This document shows positions 3,466 through 52,643 of a stretch of DNA of 64,000 nucleotides, one piece after another. Source of the DNA: Octopus sinensis (Eukaryota); NCBI RefSeq assembly GCF_006345805.1, contig NC_042997.1:64914001-64978000 (forward strand), read 5' to 3'. The position numbers and the translations under genes were made by a program. How positions within the stretch are numbered: position 1 is the first letter of the stretch; each line of letters starts with the position of its first letter. Under the pieces are notes generated by a model that was given only the letters and a program-made list of their open reading frames with translations, made no database searches and had not been told where the DNA came from.

Positions 3466-3547
3466 TATATATATATATAATATATATATATATACATATG
3501 TGCGTATGCGTGCATCTATGTGTGTGTCTTTGTGGATGTATGCATAT

Positions 3548-3792
3548 ATATATAAGAATGTTTTGCTTAATATGATAAAAATCCAAGGCTGTGTAGATAT
3601 TAGACCATTTATAGATAGAAGGTCTTACAGCTGTTTCTAGGCTATTCATTAATAATATCCCTTCATCGGAGATGGTGAAGGGATATTATTAATAAATATC
3701 CGAGAAACAGCTGTAAGACCTTCTATCTATAAATGCTCCAATATCTACACAGCCTTGGGGTTTTATCTTATTACGCAAAAAATTCTTATATA
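3548..3792. repeat. ~245-bp near-perfect palindrome (inverted pair of a hammerhead-bearing, Penelope pLTR-like repeat)
   Basis: Arms such as ATAGATAGAAGGTCTTACAGCTGTTTCT and AGAAACAGCTGTAAGACCTTCTATCTAT are reverse complements, with the centre near 3670. Flanked by (TA)n. Confidence 0.85.
3621..3672 (-). ncRNA. Minimal type I hammerhead ribozyme-like motif
   Basis: Minus strand reads TCT-CCGATGA-AGGGATATT...AATAGCCTA-GAAAC-AGCT-GTA-AGA. Stem III loop AGCT is palindromic. Confidence 0.55.
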
Positions 3793-3945
3793 CACACGTT
3801 GACATAGCAGCAACGTTGAACCCTTTATTCGCAATATTACCGAATCTGGAACTTAACTATGGTATGTCTATAGCACTTATTCAGCATTACCTGATACTTT
3901 TGGGTCTCAATGACACCATTATCTCTTATAACCTCAATTTCTCGC

Positions 3946-31743: not shown

Positions 31744-33095
31744 GCGAGATAAATGAATGTTATAATACATATATCGTTTCAAGATGGATCGTGTAATATG
31801 AATGTAGTTGTGCATATGCCTAATAATACATCTTAGCAAAATCTATAGCCTAGAATATCAGTTCAACGGATGCTTGCCCTTCTCGTTGTGCGAATTTTCT
31901 TCGGCTAATTCTTTCGCGTTCTCTCCATCATCGTGAAAATCTTCATTATATTCCTAGTAAATACAGCTGCATGAGATACTAATTTTTTACCTGAAAATGT
32001 TATTCATGTAATCTACCACGTAAGATACATAAATCTATGGGAGGTTTTAAATTAGTACTTATCGAAAACACTTATGAGCAAATACATTCCATCCGTGACA
32101 ATCGAGACTTTTCTAACTAGGTTATCAGATGCCTGATTCTCTATGGTATTAGTTCGCTATTTGCCGGAAATTTGGTTATTACTGTGTAGCAGGGTAAGCC
32201 ACCGCATATAGATTCTTTCGTTGTTTCGTTAAACCTATATTAGAGTGCATTGTAAAAGAATATGGAGAATTGTACAACTATTCATATTTTACAGTTACAT
32301 ACAGCATATATACAGATAAGAACAAAGCTGTATAATTTAAATAAATTATACGCATGGAGATCGTTATAAAGTTAGTATATTTACATATACATAGCTGTAG
32401 AAATATTTATGATGTCCGAGAGATAATTTATTTTGCAGAGCAACTAAATGAGATTCATTGTGTCTACATATATGACGTTTATATTTATAAGACCAATTAT
32501 TTAGCAATGGAGAATCACATCTGTCTATTCAGTGATAGTTTCGGAGGAAATATGTTCTACTATAAAGGATGTCAATATATATGCTGCACATGAATATAAA
32601 ATAAAAATAGTGTATGTACAAGTCTCCATACTCTTTATTATTATTATTAATATTATTATACACTCTAATAACCTTTACAGTGCTGAGTAGGACATACGAA
32701 ATTACCCAGAGGAGAATTTACCGATGACTAACAGCCCATTGTAAGCACCGGCATTAGATACTAACCATTTTCTTCAGTCGGCATCTGGAACCAACAAACA
32801 GCTAACACGCTAATCCGCTTGAATATTATATACATAAGAAGAGAAAATGGAGATTAGGAAGTTAATAATTGCGTATTTTTAACGGCAAATTTGTTAGTAA
32901 TAAACAATTATTAACTTCTTAATCTCCATTTTCTTTTCTTCTTTTAAATGAATATAAACTATGTTTTTATATATACCTACTATTTTAAGGAAATTCATTC
33001 CTTAAAAATACTAGGTATTGAATCAATGTTTCATTGGAAGAAACTATCCCTTCATGCGGTTTCCAGATCCTCTAATTAAATTATATATATATATA

Positions 33096-33444: not shown

Positions 33445-34643
33445 CATAGACAGATAGATAGTGAGAAAGAGAGAGAGAGGAGCATTTTAATAATACAAGG
33501 CAATATATATTACTAACATCTTTTATAGTACAGTATATTATCTCCGATAACTATCACTGGATACACAGTTGCAGTTCCCCATTGCTAAATAATTGGTTTA
33601 TAAATGTAAACGTCATATATTTAAACACAATGAAACTCCTTTAGTTGCTCCGCAAAATAAATTATATATCGGACGTTATGAATATTTCTACGGTTAAGTA
33701 TATGTAAATGTACTAACTTTATAACGAGCTCTATGTGTATAATTTACATGAATTATAGTGCTTTGTTCGCATTTATATAAATATTCTACTATGGTTCATA
33801 CTTTAATGTAACCAAATAACTATTGGTAATATAGAAAATATCTGAACACAACTAATGTTCATGTTTGCATATCACTAAACTAAAGCTGTCAGACTAGATG
33901 TTATAGATACCATGCTGATGTTCCTTCTAACTAGTAATCTGAGTCAAACGAATCTCATTTTTCTCTTCGTAGAAAGTTGCATAACTTTTAAATGGACGTT
34001 GGCAATATGTACCGACGACAGTGTTTCTCTGACTTTAATGAACTTTGGCTAACTTAACCACAGCCATTTCATCGTCTTTGACTAAACAATAGATAATTTA
34101 TACTTCAGGAAGAATTTAACTTGATTCATTGTGGTGTAACTTGTGCGTAGTCACTGAATATTATTGATCAAGCGAGCAATGTTAAAATATTTCATAATAG
34201 ATGTTATATTTGATTCGATTTGCAGCTCAAACAAACAAACTATCTTCTATTGACACAGGCCTGTGATAGTTTTTAAGAGAAAATATTTCATACATTAGTT
34301 ACAAGAACGAAAATAATTTTCTGGAGATGAATATTATTTTTAAAAGCTATGTACAAAGAATATATTGCACCGAGAATTCACTTAGACATTTTAGTTGTCA
34401 TTCCTTCATATGATGTAAATAGAGTAGAATTCTCAGGAGAAAATTAGCTGAACAACATGTTTAATCAATTTATATTCCGCAATTAACGATTACATAAATA
34501 ATTGTACTTTTAATTATATATCATAGAATTTAGCAATTAGTAGATGAAATTCTGGAAAACACTTTTGCAGTAATGCCAACGAGGGCAACTCAGATTAAAA
34601 AATTGCAGCCTTTAGTCTCGAACGGATATAAACATATACATGG

Positions 34644-35765: not shown

Positions 35766-37446
35766 TAGCTTTGAAAGGACGTGATTGAGTATAGCAATCA
35801 GCATCGATATTCCGGCCATTTACCCTACTCAACTCGTTAGGGTTATCCAAAGCTTCGTCATATAATGCATCATTACATTTTTGGAAGGCGGTTGAAAGTA
35901 ATTTAAAACAGATTTTATCTCATTGATCATGCAGCTATAATTTGTTAAATAGTATCATCATTCGTCAATTTTAAAACTGCTCGCCAAAGTACTGTCAGCC
36001 GTTACGTAATGCAGGCAGAAGTTTCTCACGCGGCAATTATACAAAGCAGGTACTACTATGCAACGAAAAAGTCGTAGGAATAATTTCTTCTTTTTACAGT
36101 CTTTCTGCTATGTAAGTTTTATCGTTTCACTTAGTCTTGCATCATTTACTAGTTTGAAATTCTGAATTAAATTGACAAAAGGAGATTAAGATACATTTGC
36201 TTTATTTGTACTACATACCTATTATGGTTATGTATATGTGGTTTATATTCATTTGTTTTTGCCGTTTCTAAATTCACTTTCTTTTTTCATATATTTTTTC
36301 AAATATTAAACTGAAATTTAAAATATTTTTTGCTTTAAAATTTTTCACTTTTACATGGAAACTAATTCATACTTTTGGTGATTAGCTGTACTCTATTAAA
36401 TGTCTGGTATTTGGTTTATTGACCTGCAAATTCATATAATATAAAGCTGTTCCCTAAAAAATTTCAACCTGCAGAAACTCAATTAAACGAACTCACGTTT
36501 CAACTAACGCAATTGTATAAAATATTGCAATGTAAGAAATACATAGCCTGAAATTTCACACTGAAATTTATGACTGATTTATGCTCTCCCGACTTAACAA
36601 ATAAAATTTATTAAGTTTTCTTACATTAACATCTTTTATACATATTATTTCACTCAATGTTCATAGAATTCGTACAGATTCAAGTATTCTGTACGTGCTT
36701 TCTTTGAGAATGACCTACCGTTTAGAATGGAAATTAGTTATATACCTGCACATAACATGTTCGAGTAACAGTATTTATTTTATGTGAAGTTATATTTATT
36801 AATGCACAACATGCATTGTCATATATTTACAGTTATAGCTGAGTTCAGCAGAAAAATTAGAAGTTTGTGTGAGTTTACAGATTCTCTATACTTCCACTAC
36901 AGCAACTGTATCACACACACGCACGCACACACACACAATCACTCACACACACACACGCACACACAAATAAATAGTGTAGATATATACATATATATATATA
37001 TTATATATATATATATAAATATATATATAGTGTAGATGTCAAATTTAGGCAAACCAAATTATCATATATTTTTATATATTAAATTTTATAAATTCTGAAA
37101 TCAAAATGTACATTTTAAATGATGATATCGAACTCACTTAAATTCTTTCACTAAGATAATAGGCAAATTCTCGACATCATTAGCCACACATGTACATGAT
37201 CTTAAATCACAATACTTACAGTATACACTGACTTGGTTATAATAAAAGTATCTCCCCCTTACAATACAAAGATAAGCAAATGCTAGCTATATTTAAATTA
37301 GCTATTAATTATTCTCTGTCTACACAACTTCTCGATATTGAATAAGCTCTCCGACGCTGTCTACTCTTGCAAATATAGATTTTAATCAACATTTGCACAT
37401 TACGATTCTGGACAGAATCGAGAAGCAGCCACCACACCAATGAAGC

Positions 37447-38455
37447 CGCCTCCAACCACTCAAAAACACTTCCACTGTCTGGTCTTTTGTATTCTATAAT
37501 TACTCAGTATATCATTTCGGGGTCGATAAACAAAGTACTAGTTACGCACTGGGGTCGATGTAATCGACTTAATCCCTTTTTTCTGTCCTTGTTTGTCCCC
37601 TCTTTTTTTAGCCCCTTGTGGGCAATAAGGAAACTTTTTCTGAAAAATAAATCATTCCTCTCTCCTAACCATCTACCTATAGAGCCACCAGAAGCTTTAA
37701 CTTATTATATATTGTATCTCCGCCTCCAACCACTCAAAAATACTTCCACTCCCTGGTCTTTTACATTCTATAATTACTCAGTATATCATTTCGAGGTCGA
37801 TAAACAAAGTACTAGTTACGCACTGGGGTCGATGTAATCGACTTAATCCCTTTTTTCTGTCCTTGTTTGTCCCCTCATTTTTTAGCCCCTTGTGGGCAAT
37901 AAGGAAACTTTTTCTGAAAAATCAATCATTCCTCTCTCCTAACCATCTACCTATAGAGCCACCAGAAGCTTTAACTTATTATATATTGTATCTCCGCCTC
38001 CAACCACTCAAAAATACTTCCACTCCCTGGTCTTTTACATTCTATAATTACTCAGTATATCATTTCGAGGTCGATAAACAAAGTACTAGTTACGCACTGG
38101 GGTCGATGTAATCGACTTAATCCCTTTTTTCTGTCCTTGTTTGTCCCCTCTTTTTTTAGCCCCTTGTGGGCAATAAGGAAACTTTTTCTGAAAAATAAAT
38201 CATTCCTCTCTCCTAACCATCTACCTATAGAGCTACCAGAAGCTTTAACTTATTATATATTGTATCTCCGCCTCCAACCACTCAAAGATACTTCCACTCC
38301 CTGGTCTTTTGCATTCTATAATTACTCAGTATATCATTTCGGGGTCGATAAATAAAGTACTAGTTACGCACTGGGGTCGATCTAATCGACTTAATCCCTT
38401 TTTTCTGTCCTTGTTTGTCCCCTCTATGTTTAGCCCCTTGTGGGCATTAAGGAAA
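37447..38455 (+). repeat. Tandem array of a 274-bp unit (about 3.7 copies) containing a SINE 3' part
   Basis: CGCCTCCAACCACTCAAA starts at 37447, 37721, 37995 and 38269 (spacing 274). The copies are nearly identical. Confidence 0.95.
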
Positions 38456-48909: not shown

Positions 48910-49198
48910 TACGATTTTAATTGCCCAATATATATTTTACTTTTAATTTGTTTTTGTCTTACGAGAGAGAATTTGGAAATATTAAATTTCTAAATCCCTC
49001 ATAGAGATATGTACGGTGGTGGGGCGATAGAATGGTTGTATACTGTCAATCTAACGTGAACGTGACAGTAGGGGGTTACACCACCGCTGTTTAGCCCTAG
49101 GAAGCATCGACGCTTCCTGCTGGCTTCGACACATTTTTCCTGTGTCCTTATATACATTTACGAAGGGGAGACAAACACCCTCAGCAGCCAGGCCTGCA

Positions 49199-49245
49199 TC
49201 TAGAGACACGCATGTTTCAGGATCATTGTCCATCATCGGTCAAGA
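49199..49245 (-). ncRNA. Minimal type I hammerhead ribozyme (left retrozyme arm)
   Basis: Minus strand reads TCTTGA-CCGATGA-TGGACAATGATCCT-GAAAC-ATGCGT-GTC-TCTAGA. Confidence 0.65.
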
Positions 49246-49272
49246 GTAGCAGACGCCCGCCAGCTGTTGATA

Positions 49273-50905
49273 AATCTTTATTATAGGCACAATGGCCCGA
49301 ATACAGAGCGGACATATCAATACAGGTACATATAATAAAAAAAATACAAAAAGGATGGTATGACAATGAATTATTTATAATGAATTAATGAAATGTCTTA
49401 CGGGTTCCCCAAGCTCGCAGTTTCATTTAAATTACCATTGTGTTATTCAGAGCGTTCATCTGTTATGTATTCGAGTACTTCCTCCTGCTCTATAATCCCT
49501 GGCAAACTCTCGTACCGAACGTATTGCATTATGCTTATACCTTTGCTCAGTTTCATCACTGTCTCTCTTTCCACAATCGCCGCCTTCACCTGATCATCAA
49601 ACATTTTCGGATTTAATTTCACTCTGGTTAAATTTTTTATGTTTGCCAACTTCTTCTCAATTTCCTTGTCCTTCCTTGTCCTACCGCTTTCAGATTTCTT
49701 CCTTTTGGTCTATTTCCTTCCTTACATATTCTCAGCCAATCTTCCACTTTACTTTCCCATTCTTTCTCCTCCTGCCGCCTTGAAACTTCACTGGCTTTCG
49801 TTTCAGTATCTTCCTCTTCGTGCGTTCGAACCTCTATCTCGTCGGTAGTCTTCTTTTTTGTTTTTTTCTTTTTTTTGTTGTACTTTAGGTAGTGATTCCA
49901 CCCGCGTTCTCTTTCTATCTTCTTTTCCTTCTGTTCTTTCCTTTTCTTCCTCCTTCACCAACTCGTCACCACTTTCCACATTATCTGTATTCACACTTTC
50001 TTCTTCTACATCCGCCATTTGCAATTCCTCTGTCAGAGCCTCCAATGTTATCATCTCCTCTTGTACTTTTTTTTGCGGACACACATCCTTCATGTGGCCT
50101 CTAATCTTACATCTGTAGCACACTGGGGGTCTCCCCTCTACCACGACTCTGAGCCGTGTCTCGTCGGGGAACACCAACTCTTCTGGGATGTTATACATGT
50201 CTGGCATGGTTATGTGTACCAAAGCCTGTACTGCATAACCCCACCACTTTACTTCCTTTGACCTTTCTATCTTCAATATCTCGACATTCTCCTTGCAGTT
50301 AAATATTGTTGCTGCTATAATTCTCTCCATTTTCAATTCTGGTGAAATTTTGCTGCTTCTTATTCTCACCGCTCGTTTTCCACAATAGCTAGGTAGTAGT
50401 ACCCATTTTTCATTTTTCAGTATTTTCGTAGCGTTCTTCTTTGCTTCAGCTTCGTTCTCAAAATGAACTACCACCGTCGCGTACTTTCTACCTCTATTAT
50501 AGAAGGTAGCGTTTTCTTCAATCTCCTGCAAACACCTCTCGATTTCCTCCACATCTGCCACTTCTATTTTCTTCGAAGCCACGCTCCACGTTCTATATGC
50601 CACAATACGCCTCTCTGCCTCCTTCACTTCGTCTTCTGGTAGTGTGACTCTCAGGCAGTCACCCTCCTTCTTGAAACTGTTGAAGTATTCCTTCAGGCTC
50701 TCCTTCTCGACGACCACTTCCTCCAACTGCAGCTCGCTCGCAGCCAGACCCTTGCCTGCCGCTCCTGCATAAGTTTGGGTTTGCATATTCGAAAAAAAAT
50801 TTCCACAATTCACCACGCCGTAACAGCTTCCACCAACGAACTCGAACTCAGAACCGCGACACACAATAAACGTAATCCAAAATATCCGACATAAACAGAA
50901 AAAAA
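49273..50905 (-). mobile_element. ORF1-only (HAL1-like) Tx1/L1-type non-LTR element with a 15-bp TSD
   Basis: CGCCAGCTGTTGATA occurs at 49258-49272 and 50906-50920. The uninterrupted target is visible in the right arm (51271-51285, reverse complement). Contains a CCHC ORF1, no RT, and a 3' AATAAA. Confidence 0.8.
49803..50786 (-). CDS. Gag-like/ORF1 nucleic-acid-binding protein with a CCHC zinc knuckle (frameshifted continuation to 49443)
   Basis: Open frame from MQTQTYAGAA, containing VVVEGRPPVCYRCKIRGHMKDVC (CX2CX4HX4C preceded by G.P, typical of Tx1/L1 ORF1). A charged C-terminus continues in shifted frames to ...ITDERSE*. Confidence 0.8.
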   Translation of the reverse strand: MQTQTYAGAAGKGLAASELQLEEVVVEKESLKEYFNSFKKEGDCLRVTLPEDEVKEAERRIVAYRTWSVASKKIEVADVEEIERCLQEIEENATFYNRGRKYATVVVHFENEAEAKKNATKILKNEKWVLLPSYCGKRAVRIRSSKISPELKMERIIAATIFNCKENVEILKIERSKEVKWWGYAVQALVHITMPDMYNIPEELVFPDETRLRVVVEGRPPVCYRCKIRGHMKDVCPQKKVQEEMITLEALTEELQMADVEEESVNTDNVESGDELVKEEEKERTEGKEDRKRTRVESLPKVQQKKEKNKKEDYRRDRGSNARRGRY

Positions 50906-51297
50906 CGCCAGCTGTTGATATCTGTCCCGATTCGCAAATGTAAATATCTAATTTTCAGTGAAGTTTATTCACTGATTACCAAAATCAGAAATATTAAATT
51001 TCTAAATCTCTCATAGAGATATGTACGGTGTGGGGCGATAGAATGGTTGTATACTGTCAATCTAACGTGAACGTGACAGTAGGGCTAAACAGCGGTGGTG
51101 TAACCCCCTACTGTCACGTTCACGTTAGATTGACAGTATACAACCATTCTATCGCCCCACCGCCATACATATCTCTATGAGAGATTTAGAAATTTAATAT
51201 TTCTGATTTTGGTAATCAGTGAATAAACTTCACTGAAAATTAGGTATTTACATTTGCGAATCGGGACAGATATCAACAGCTGGCGTGCGTCTGCTAC

Positions 51298-51344
51298 TCT
51301 AGACCGATGATGGACACTGATCCTGAAACATGCGCGTCTCTAGA
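51298..51344 (+). ncRNA. Minimal type I hammerhead ribozyme (right retrozyme arm)
   Basis: TCTAGA-CCGATGA-T-GGA-CACTGA-TCC-T-GAAAC-ATGCGC-GTC-TCTAGA: 6-bp stem I, GUC cleavage triplet, quasi-palindromic stem III. Confidence 0.72.
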
Positions 51345-52329
51345 TGCAGGCCTGGCTGCTGGGGGTGTTTGTCTCCCCCTTCGTAAATGTATATAAGGAC
51401 ACAGGAAAAATGTGTCGAAGCCAGCAGGAAGCGTCGATGCTTCCTAGGGCTAAACAGTGGGAGTGTAACCCCCTACTGTCATGTTCACGTTAGAGAGAGA
51501 ATTTACTTTCGGTAAACTATTATTGGCGACATTTGCAGCTTCAAATCGCTATATCTCATATGAAATACATACTGAATAAATATTCGTCCATTGTCATGTC
51601 TAGTAATAATCATTTTTTAAAATACAGTTACCTTCTTGATCAACACACACATGCCTATTCCCGCAATTTTTGTTTATACCGTTGCATATATAAATATAGA
51701 TATGTGTGTGTGTGTGTGCCTGTGTGTTTATGCGTGTGCCTGTGTGAGTGATAGTATTTGTGTGGTAAGAGTAACTTGGAACTTGTAGCAACGACGTACT
51801 CACAACTACAGATTACCTATGCGATGTACTTCACTTCTCAGTTGTCTTCATTGAATATAATATATAGTTTATGACGGGCAAGAATTGTGAAGAGTCTGGG
51901 CCTTCAGCTACGAATTGCAGGTGTAAATCTCAGTAAGGTAACTCTTCAGATAAACAGATATGGCTTTCAATAACTGTGGTAGAGTGTCTTTTTATATAAA
52001 TGAGTCTTTATTCAGACATGCTCTGCCAGCAATCCGAACTATACGCCTGCTGATGTGTTGAGAGTATGCTTCAACTTATCTTATATTTGGATACGAGACG
52101 AACAATCTCAGCTTTCCATCCAAAATGAGGGATGGACTCACTAGACGTGCCTTAACATCCCAGGTTGAAAACATTTTAATTTAGATGAAGAATTTATCAA
52201 CTAGCAGTTGAAATTTACTCACAAAAATGTAACTATATTTTACACAAATGTTACTGGTTTGCAAAGGTAACAGCGTAGTACAATGGTATAAATTTTACAT
52301 TATGGTTGGTAGTAATATTCCTGCTAAAA

Positions 52330-52643
52330 TTTTCAATAGAATTTTCTATCCTCTTCAGCATAATAGTATTCCTCGCCCACTAAACACAAATACAGAAAGA
52401 AAGAGTGGTATGATGCTGCAACATTTAGATGCACCAAACCATATTTATGCCACTAGATATGTTGCGAAAGTCATCATGGAAAATATGATGGAAGCAATCA
52501 ATATAACAGCTTGTGCCAAAGAATACCTTATGATTCCACAGTTTTCCTTCGCAAGAGATATTGTATTTCAGTTCAAACGCCGTATATTTCTAGTGGCGAT
52601 GTCTCTTTCGATAACAATCAACAAATCTTATGCTAAAGCATGA
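52330..52643 (+). pseudogene. Helitron PIF1 helicase fragment
   Basis: MLQHLDAPNHIYATRYVAKVIMENMMEAINITACAKEYLMIPQ...FQFKRRIFLVAMSLSITINKS aligns to MLLRNLDAPKLCNGTRL...FKRLQFPV.LAFAMTINKS. Confidence 0.8.

Follow-up and report, generated by a model that had tools for sequence, protein, structure and literature searches.

Introduction

ORF1-only LINEs (PMC5753468) and repeat-targeting Tx1 elements are already known. HAL1 is a non-autonomous LINE derivative which encodes ORF1 only (PMC5753468). For Tx1L, Keno, Tx1-Mar and SINEU, insertion into repeats and snRNA genes, tandem insertion and U1/U2-derived heads are described, together with a proposed transcription from the flanks (PMC4494074). 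The same source describes R2 as having no promoter of its own and being co-transcribed with its target (PMC4494074). As for the transcription machinery itself, TRE5-A ORF1 binds TBP, Brf1 and Bdp1, and the insertion site of Ty3 is the Pol III start (PMC5911963). Precise start-site targeting has so far been described for Pol III genes (Ty3, TRE5 and NLTR-A), and Tx1 specificity is usually ascribed to the endonuclease.

Here we analysed a window, i.e. the whole stretch of 64,000 nucleotides of Octopus sinensis DNA, in which an ORF1-only element interrupts a hammerhead repeat. Like HAL1, the insert family encodes ORF1 only and has a 3' tail common to autonomous relatives. Unlike HAL1, it is Tx1-type (RRM-RRM-CCHC, with a ZCCHC3-like ORF1) and not derived from mammalian L1, it has no poly(A), it shows a strong target preference, and its ORF1 is only about 30% identical to that of its partner. 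As in the Tx1-clade LINEs, the partners have an APE-RT-zf-RVT ORF2, target repeats and snRNA genes, insert in tandem and carry U1/U2-derived heads. Each Tx1 case in the published account is confined to a single target family, at one or two positions within it, whereas here one clade uses unrelated targets at +1 or at a fixed distance below a TATA box. Position-specific insertion tied to the transcription machinery, as the insert positions suggest here, is shared with Dictyostelium TRE5-A and NLTR-A and with yeast Ty3. As described, however, these elements have Pol III genes as their targets, with TRE5 lying in antisense at about 50 bp upstream, in contrast to the Pol II-type promoters, the +1 position and the sense orientation seen here in an animal. 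R2 differs by its restriction-like endonuclease, its single 28S rDNA site and its own 5' ribozyme; in the present case the ribozyme belongs to the host and lies 3'.

Our literature search gave no report of Tx1 elements at hammerhead or Penelope repeats, and Repbase entries might describe such families. Within its scope, which left aside Repbase and most subscription papers, precise targeting of Pol II start sites was likewise not reported for Tx1-type LINEs. An octopus repeat annotation lists L1-Tx1 families, and its main text does not contain the words target, ORF1 or hammerhead (PMC13282606).

Results

The insert in the window

The insert is a dead copy of an ORF1-only (half-LINE) Tx1-type element of 1633 bp at positions 49273-50905 on the minus strand, and its nearest relative is 96.3% identical. 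The preliminary description had placed it between perfect 15-bp target-site duplications, and the 5' copy (50906-50920, minus strand) and the 3' copy (49258-49272, minus strand) were indeed identical. This exact 15-bp direct repeat was the longest at the insert junctions. The first base of the 5' copy would be the transcription start of the host repeat. The insert ends in the conserved terminal AATAAAGA (49275-49282, minus strand), which is common to the autonomous partners, plus two bases. The earlier reading of a 5' UTR of about 120 nt was confirmed, with the ATG at 50786 lying 119 nt from the insert 5' end, and so was the lack of poly(A) and of an RT frame. LTRs were also absent from the insert. 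Because ORF1 similarity reaches about 49474, the supposedly short 3' UTR measures about 200 nt once the frameshifted ORF1 remnant is counted.

ORF1 (49474-50786, minus strand) comprises two RRM-like domains, a CCHC knuckle and a charged C-terminal half. In the window it is open for 327 aa, only to 49803; a frameshift in an A-rich tract leads to the early stop, and later lesions follow. In the relative L008, ORF1 is open for 445 aa, and the similarity of the window copy continues to about 49474. The zf-CCHC Pfam match to the insert ORF (E 0.02) was below the cut-off. When the N-terminal 246 aa were modelled with AlphaFold, the pLDDT was 86, and the fold search matched tandem RRM proteins with modest Z-scores of 8-9. 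Matches in the Atlas were ZCCHC3-like and CCHC clusters, most frequent in Mollusca. A word-indexed protein search with the 445-aa ORF1 gave no match, and an exhaustive one gave 403 relatives, none of them named. The knuckle of the "gag-like" CCHC ORF1 in the preliminary description was thus retained, and "gag-like" itself is loose, as there are two RRM-like domains and no capsid fold among the matches of the N-terminal 246 aa. Judged by the predicted fold, the insert protein is a LINE-type ORF1, a truncated version of a two-RRM and CCHC protein of about 445 aa.

The host hammerhead repeat

The insert splits a partially tandem hammerhead repeat with a unit of about 361 nt (48976-51084, minus strand). 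An uninterrupted inverted copy with the empty site lies next to it (51080-51494, plus strand; hammerhead core at 51304-51338), and a 12-bp duplication encloses the whole host unit (left copy 48963-48974, right copy 51493-51504, plus strand). The split repeat contains a minimal type I hammerhead core with a palindromic stem III at 49205-49239 on the minus strand, with the predicted cut after 49205. As described before, the hammerhead follows about 12 nt past the duplication, with stem I at 12 nt and the core at 18 nt. A degenerate TATA-like box (50939-50950, minus strand), which is perfect in many sister copies, is located 20-30 nt upstream of the duplication.

Rfam at the gathering score had no match anywhere in the window, so the hammerhead call rests on motif, covariation and family evidence. 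Stem I of the window hammerhead has one change compared with the intact copy. The pair between positions 3 and 8 is a hallmark of the type I minimal hammerhead. This pairing was kept in 69 of 71 cores (C-G in 52, U-A in 11, U-G in 6; mismatch in 2), and stem III was palindromic across the variants. MFE folding of single copies did not yield the hammerhead fold.

The host family has 2434 candidates in the genome. At the 29 loci that we read, the repeats showed partial tandems, 5' truncation, inverted 5' copies, fixed 3' ends and often TA-rich surroundings. The same architecture is described for Penelope-like elements (PMC8557442), from which animal retrozymes of the same architecture derive according to the sources at hand (bioRxiv 10.64898/2026.07.22.740005; PMC7229834). 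Non-LTR retrozymes and Penelope pseudo-LTRs share with this host short tandem units, type I hammerheads, 5' truncation, inverted 5' copies and TA-rich targets, as far as these are described (PMC7229834, PMC8557442, bioRxiv 10.64898/2026.07.22.740005). Unlike described non-LTR retrozymes, the host subfamily has a minimal hammerhead with a palindromic stem III, C at core position 4 and mostly one or two units. By its sequence features, the host is a Penelope-type, non-LTR retrozyme-like hammerhead repeat with a predicted ribozyme. Upstream of a truncated copy (L057:145-414), a short frame resembles what we take to be a GIY-YIG Penelope C-terminus.

An ORF1-only family

Full-length relatives of the insert at 74-95% identity were found by DNA search among the best 40 of 1031 candidates scored; for ORF1 relatives, the best 150 of 14,409 protein-search candidates were scored. 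The exact 23-nt tail pattern occurred 102 times in the genome and 0 times in the control. Of these places, 100 gave a set of 98 distinct junctions. ORF1 lay upstream of 78/98 tails, and no tail (0/98) had a same-strand ORF2 within 1.5-2.3 kb upstream, the single match being on the opposite strand. Full-length ORF1-only units numbered 84, and ORF1 was open for at least 420 aa in 17 of them. Based on 35 frame-intact N-terminal halves from the 84 units, dN/dS was 0.31 in the closest of six dS bins and 0.09-0.17 in the other five. At the sequence level, ORF1 is under purifying selection, with a dN/dS of about 0.1. In the tree, 18 ORF1-only rows formed one side of a branch (support 100/99) against 9 rows labelled autonomous, two of which (L181a and L185b) may be other ORF1-only units.

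The lack of an upstream ORF2 and the selection on ORF1 indicate an old ORF1-only lineage. A one-off deletion of ORF2 after insertion is ruled out by these two results and by the many relatives. The HAL1-type, ORF1-only nature proposed earlier was hence borne out for a multi-copy family. This family carries the marks of target-primed reverse transcription (TPRT), namely variable duplications, 5' truncation and a 3' end common to an autonomous LINE.

More distant ORF1-only families with the same 23-nt tail and an ORF1 about 30-37% identical were also seen (L048/L138, L053/L139, L054-L055, L060 and L093). In these families, insertion about 22 nt before the hammerhead core represents a second register. 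The first bases of the ORF1-only copies L006 and L007 are those found at the 5' end of the autonomous host-A element, which suggests an exchange of 5' ends. L282:4477-7226 (G000:C1 near 194.608-194.611 Mb) contains three 1.37-kb units in tandem, in which the 5' end and part of ORF1 of the autonomous family are fused to the ORF1-only tail. These units are possibly a new chimeric non-autonomous form.

Recurrent insertion at hammerhead repeats

By pattern, a hammerhead core followed 19-42 nt past the tail in 56/98 junctions (4.9% by chance), another element followed in 6/98 and neither in 36/98. Inspection by eye reassigned 10 of these 36, namely four with a mutated hammerhead, two in hosts that had lost it by deletion, three in arrays and one with the host upstream. 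After this by-eye review, about 72/98 ends were tied to several diverged hammerhead repeats and about 26 lay elsewhere. Most of the latter are short 5'-truncated copies, 23 of the approximately 26 being <1.45 kb by a rough BLAST measure.

The duplications of 14-17 bp agreed with the local host variant, and the cut positions formed two registers with about 8 nt between them. In a comparison of 39 hammerhead-linked units, the insert closest to that of the window (L003) sits in a host only 67% alike, which argues for independent insertions. Over all 741 pairs of these units, insert and host identity gave a rho of 0.15. Arrays contained up to four units with a duplication between each, so that one site was used repeatedly. 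Adjacent host units held different inserts in L024 and L069, and L004/L005 and L013/L015 were local duplicates. The age order within arrays was balanced between newest by the promoter and newest by the host remainder (7 vs 7).

Autonomous partners with APE and RT

The search for partners by zf-RVT scored the best 150 of 24,040 candidates. It recovered APE-RT-zf-RVT elements that end in the same terminal motif without poly(A). Pfam domains PF03372, PF00078 and PF13966 were above the cut-off in ORF2 of L175 and L177, as was zf-CCHC in ORF1 of L174. At 30 loci with the window-type host site, the upstream frame was ORF2 in 5, ORF1 in 23 and neither in 2. L271, L275 and L276 are full-length 5.4-kb autonomous elements with duplications at this site, and L273 is a 5'-truncated one; L177, L208 and L209 are autonomous copies at a second hammerhead repeat.

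An autonomous partner with the same ORF1 plus APE-RT had been envisaged. A same-site APE-RT partner does exist, but its ORF1 is not the same, being about 26-36% identical to the ORF1-only protein. The window tail and the L271 tail have only the last motifs in common, and the tail of the LTR-targeting subfamily is near-identical to that of L174. L171-L173 were considered as a clean autonomous element with the same ORF1 and rejected, as they are mixed arrays or a rearranged locus.

From their predicted domains, the partners are L1/Tx1-group LINEs, with APE, RT and a C-terminal zinc finger in ORF2 and RRMs plus CCHC in ORF1. The label "Tx1-type" reflects the order of the domains, the missing poly(A) and the preference for particular targets. 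These traits match what we take to be the features of the Tx1 clade.

U1, U2, solo LTR and other targets

Partners 85-92% alike in DNA were found at hammerhead repeats A and C, U1 and U2. The 60-nt surroundings of these four targets match at only 20-22 places. L307 is a full-length copy located exactly at U2 +1, and both the promoter-side flank and a duplication are present. L191 lies between the U1 promoter flank and a complete U1, with a short deletion and no duplication. L088 is an ORF1-only copy directly before a complete U2 at +1, and its duplication is degenerate. The U1/U2 cases are few (3 loci). A further target (E) is a solo LTR with 4-bp duplications at 3/3 loci read, which is used by ORF1-only and autonomous subfamilies 26-31 nt below its TATA box. 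These results bear on the proposed role of the insert as a target-specific parasite of the retrozyme. Recurrent, independent insertion at the site was upheld, and a restriction to this retrozyme or its 15-mer was not, given the diverged repeats, the +1 of U1/U2 and the solo LTR.

TATA-like boxes were scored as TATAWAW with at most one mismatch, starting at -38 to -24, on 62 hand-curated outermost junctions. A box was present in 16/16 host A sites, 5/7 hammerhead subtypes and 7/10 non-hammerhead full-length targets. All seven of the last group lay at -25 to -31. The background was 0.23-0.26, and six other flanking windows gave 0-2/10. The binomial p was 0.004, or 0.012 with two related LTRs merged, on a junction list curated by eye and with a TATA idea that arose from the same data. 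The box was missing at 3/10 non-hammerhead full-length targets and at two hammerhead subtypes, and truncated off-target copies showed no TATA excess (3/12). At unrelated targets, insertion hence occurred at a constant distance from promoter elements, in a curated set of small numbers. For the hammerhead repeats as well as the unnamed targets, the transcription starts are predicted ones.

Foreign 5' leaders were picked by eye and are given here as cases, not as counts: U1 nt 1-20 in L099, the LTR start in L171 and L074, and the start of hammerhead repeat B in the U2 insertion L307. Such leaders would be expected if transcription of the donors began at the first base of their duplication. Template switching, which has been proposed as the source of U1/U2 heads (PMC4494074), is an alternative and would likewise mark RNA 5' ends.

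Several other repeated targets were observed. One is common to ORF1-only and autonomous copies (L129, L144, L146, L153, L172, L185 and L205). Three more multi-copy targets have fixed insertion points (L176, L178 and L184; L182 and L189-L190; L192-L194), two with a TATA box at -27 to -29 and one without. Rfam gave no match on two sampled targets (L176 and L165). A decayed Gypsy-type RNase H/integrase at L064:7600-8501, antisense to the solo LTR target, is the apparent insertion site of that LTR. A U1 gene cluster at G000:C15 28.98-29.18 Mb (L287-L305) has a conserved element at about -55 which resembles the L307 U2 flank and is likely a PSE.

Discussion

We consider it probable that Tx1-type LINEs and their ORF1-only derivative target multi-copy Pol II transcription starts and capture the host promoters, the insert in the window being a broken copy. 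Under this model, full-length Tx1-type partners likely copy the ORF1-only element in trans, and insertion likely occurs in sense orientation at a Pol II start, which in this window would be that of a Penelope-type hammerhead repeat. The element would have no promoter of its own and the host start would drive its transcription, so that its RNA would begin with the 14-20 nt duplication. Partner ORF2 would nick the template strand at +1 and prime reverse transcription at the conserved tail. A second nick 14-20 nt further would create the duplication and rebuild the site, hence the tandem arrays. ORF1 would coat its own RNA and would be retained because it is required in cis. By analogy with TRE5-A, whose ORF1 binds TBP, and with the insertion of Ty3 at Pol III starts, our first guess is that the start site may be found by tethering to the initiation complex or to an open promoter. 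The hammerhead would be a bystander.

A bolder version is that this LINE clade recognises Pol II starts as such, both TATA-type and snRNA-type, nicks the template strand at +1 and lives wholly on captured promoters, while the ORF1-only satellite would retain ORF1 for its role as a tether to the initiation complex. We advance it tentatively, as a proposal somewhat more apt to fail than to hold. If it is true, the elements would mark repeat start sites genome-wide, and U1/U2-headed SINEs and Tx1 elements would have a simple origin.

The clustering of each autonomous subfamily at its own target, with endonuclease domains that differ by 13-16%, favours another explanation: endonuclease variants read their own short targets and promoter-less lineages survive only at start sites, by selection and not by recognition. 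Tx1 target choice is described as set mainly by the endonuclease (PMC4494074), several of the present targets begin with AT(C/A), and off-target copies are mostly truncated, as this explanation would expect. Nevertheless, one close clade uses four unrelated sequences, L307 sits in U2 despite its hammerhead-repeat leader, and ORF1-only inserts 92-96% alike occupy hosts only 55-67% alike. Sequence specificity with selection is unlikely to be the explanation, though it is the chief competitor of start-site targeting.

Given the lack of poly(A) and a tail that stops a few bases past AATAAA, transcripts likely extend into the target. This would suit a homing by RNA homology, in which read-through RNA flanked on either side by the duplication pairs with nicked DNA of that repeat, with no promoter recognition. 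Co-transcription with the target is said to strengthen specificity (PMC4494074), and the 5' and 3' duplications differ at times. Such homing leaves unexplained the jumps between unrelated targets at +1 (L307 and L171) and the presence, at new sites, of 5'-truncated copies that lie below a TATA box (L159 and L201). As the main mechanism it is very improbable, and it may supplement start-site targeting.

The preliminary description further imagined read-through transcripts with ribozyme-cut 3' ends, and insert and hammerhead moved as one protein-coding retrozyme by Penelope machinery via such ends. The insert indeed has the same orientation as the ribozyme and lies about 66 nt from its cut, the hosts show Penelope-type tandems and inversions, and L071 and L073 on different chromosomes have inserts 98.9% alike and hosts 97.5% alike. 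The arrays of this pair have different numbers of units and a different upstream unit, leaving one ambiguous pair in 741. All 71 hammerheads after tails (69 by motif, 2 by eye) run into host sequence past the cut; therefore no integrated copy ends at it (0/71), and cut ends in integrated copies were not seen, though read-through RNA may be cut by the ribozyme. Given also the scant correlation between insert and host identities, the different inserts in adjacent host units and a family that thrives at ribozyme-free targets, joint mobilisation is the least credible reading and was not borne out.

On the start-site targeting that we prefer, a LINE landing at +1 of unrelated Pol II promoters would represent a different targeting rule. 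It suggests how SINEU without a promoter and Tx1 elements with U1/U2 heads could be transcribed, a question that the published account leaves open (PMC4494074), and it predicts the transcription starts of Penelope-type retrozymes. The ORF1-only family provides a natural test of why half-LINEs keep ORF1, within a three-tier parasitism of half-LINE on LINE on retrozyme on Penelope.

Other repeats in the window

Elsewhere in the window, a 274-bp tandem repeat with 3.7 copies and 97% matches occupies 37446-38455. The inverted repeats of 185 nt at 32306-32490 and 33598-33782 (85%) possibly belong to a non-autonomous DNA transposon, and those of 130 nt at 3536-3805 (88%, 10 nt apart) possibly to a hairpin element. 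A 131-aa frame at 52248-52643 reads like what is presumably a decayed Helitron helicase end.
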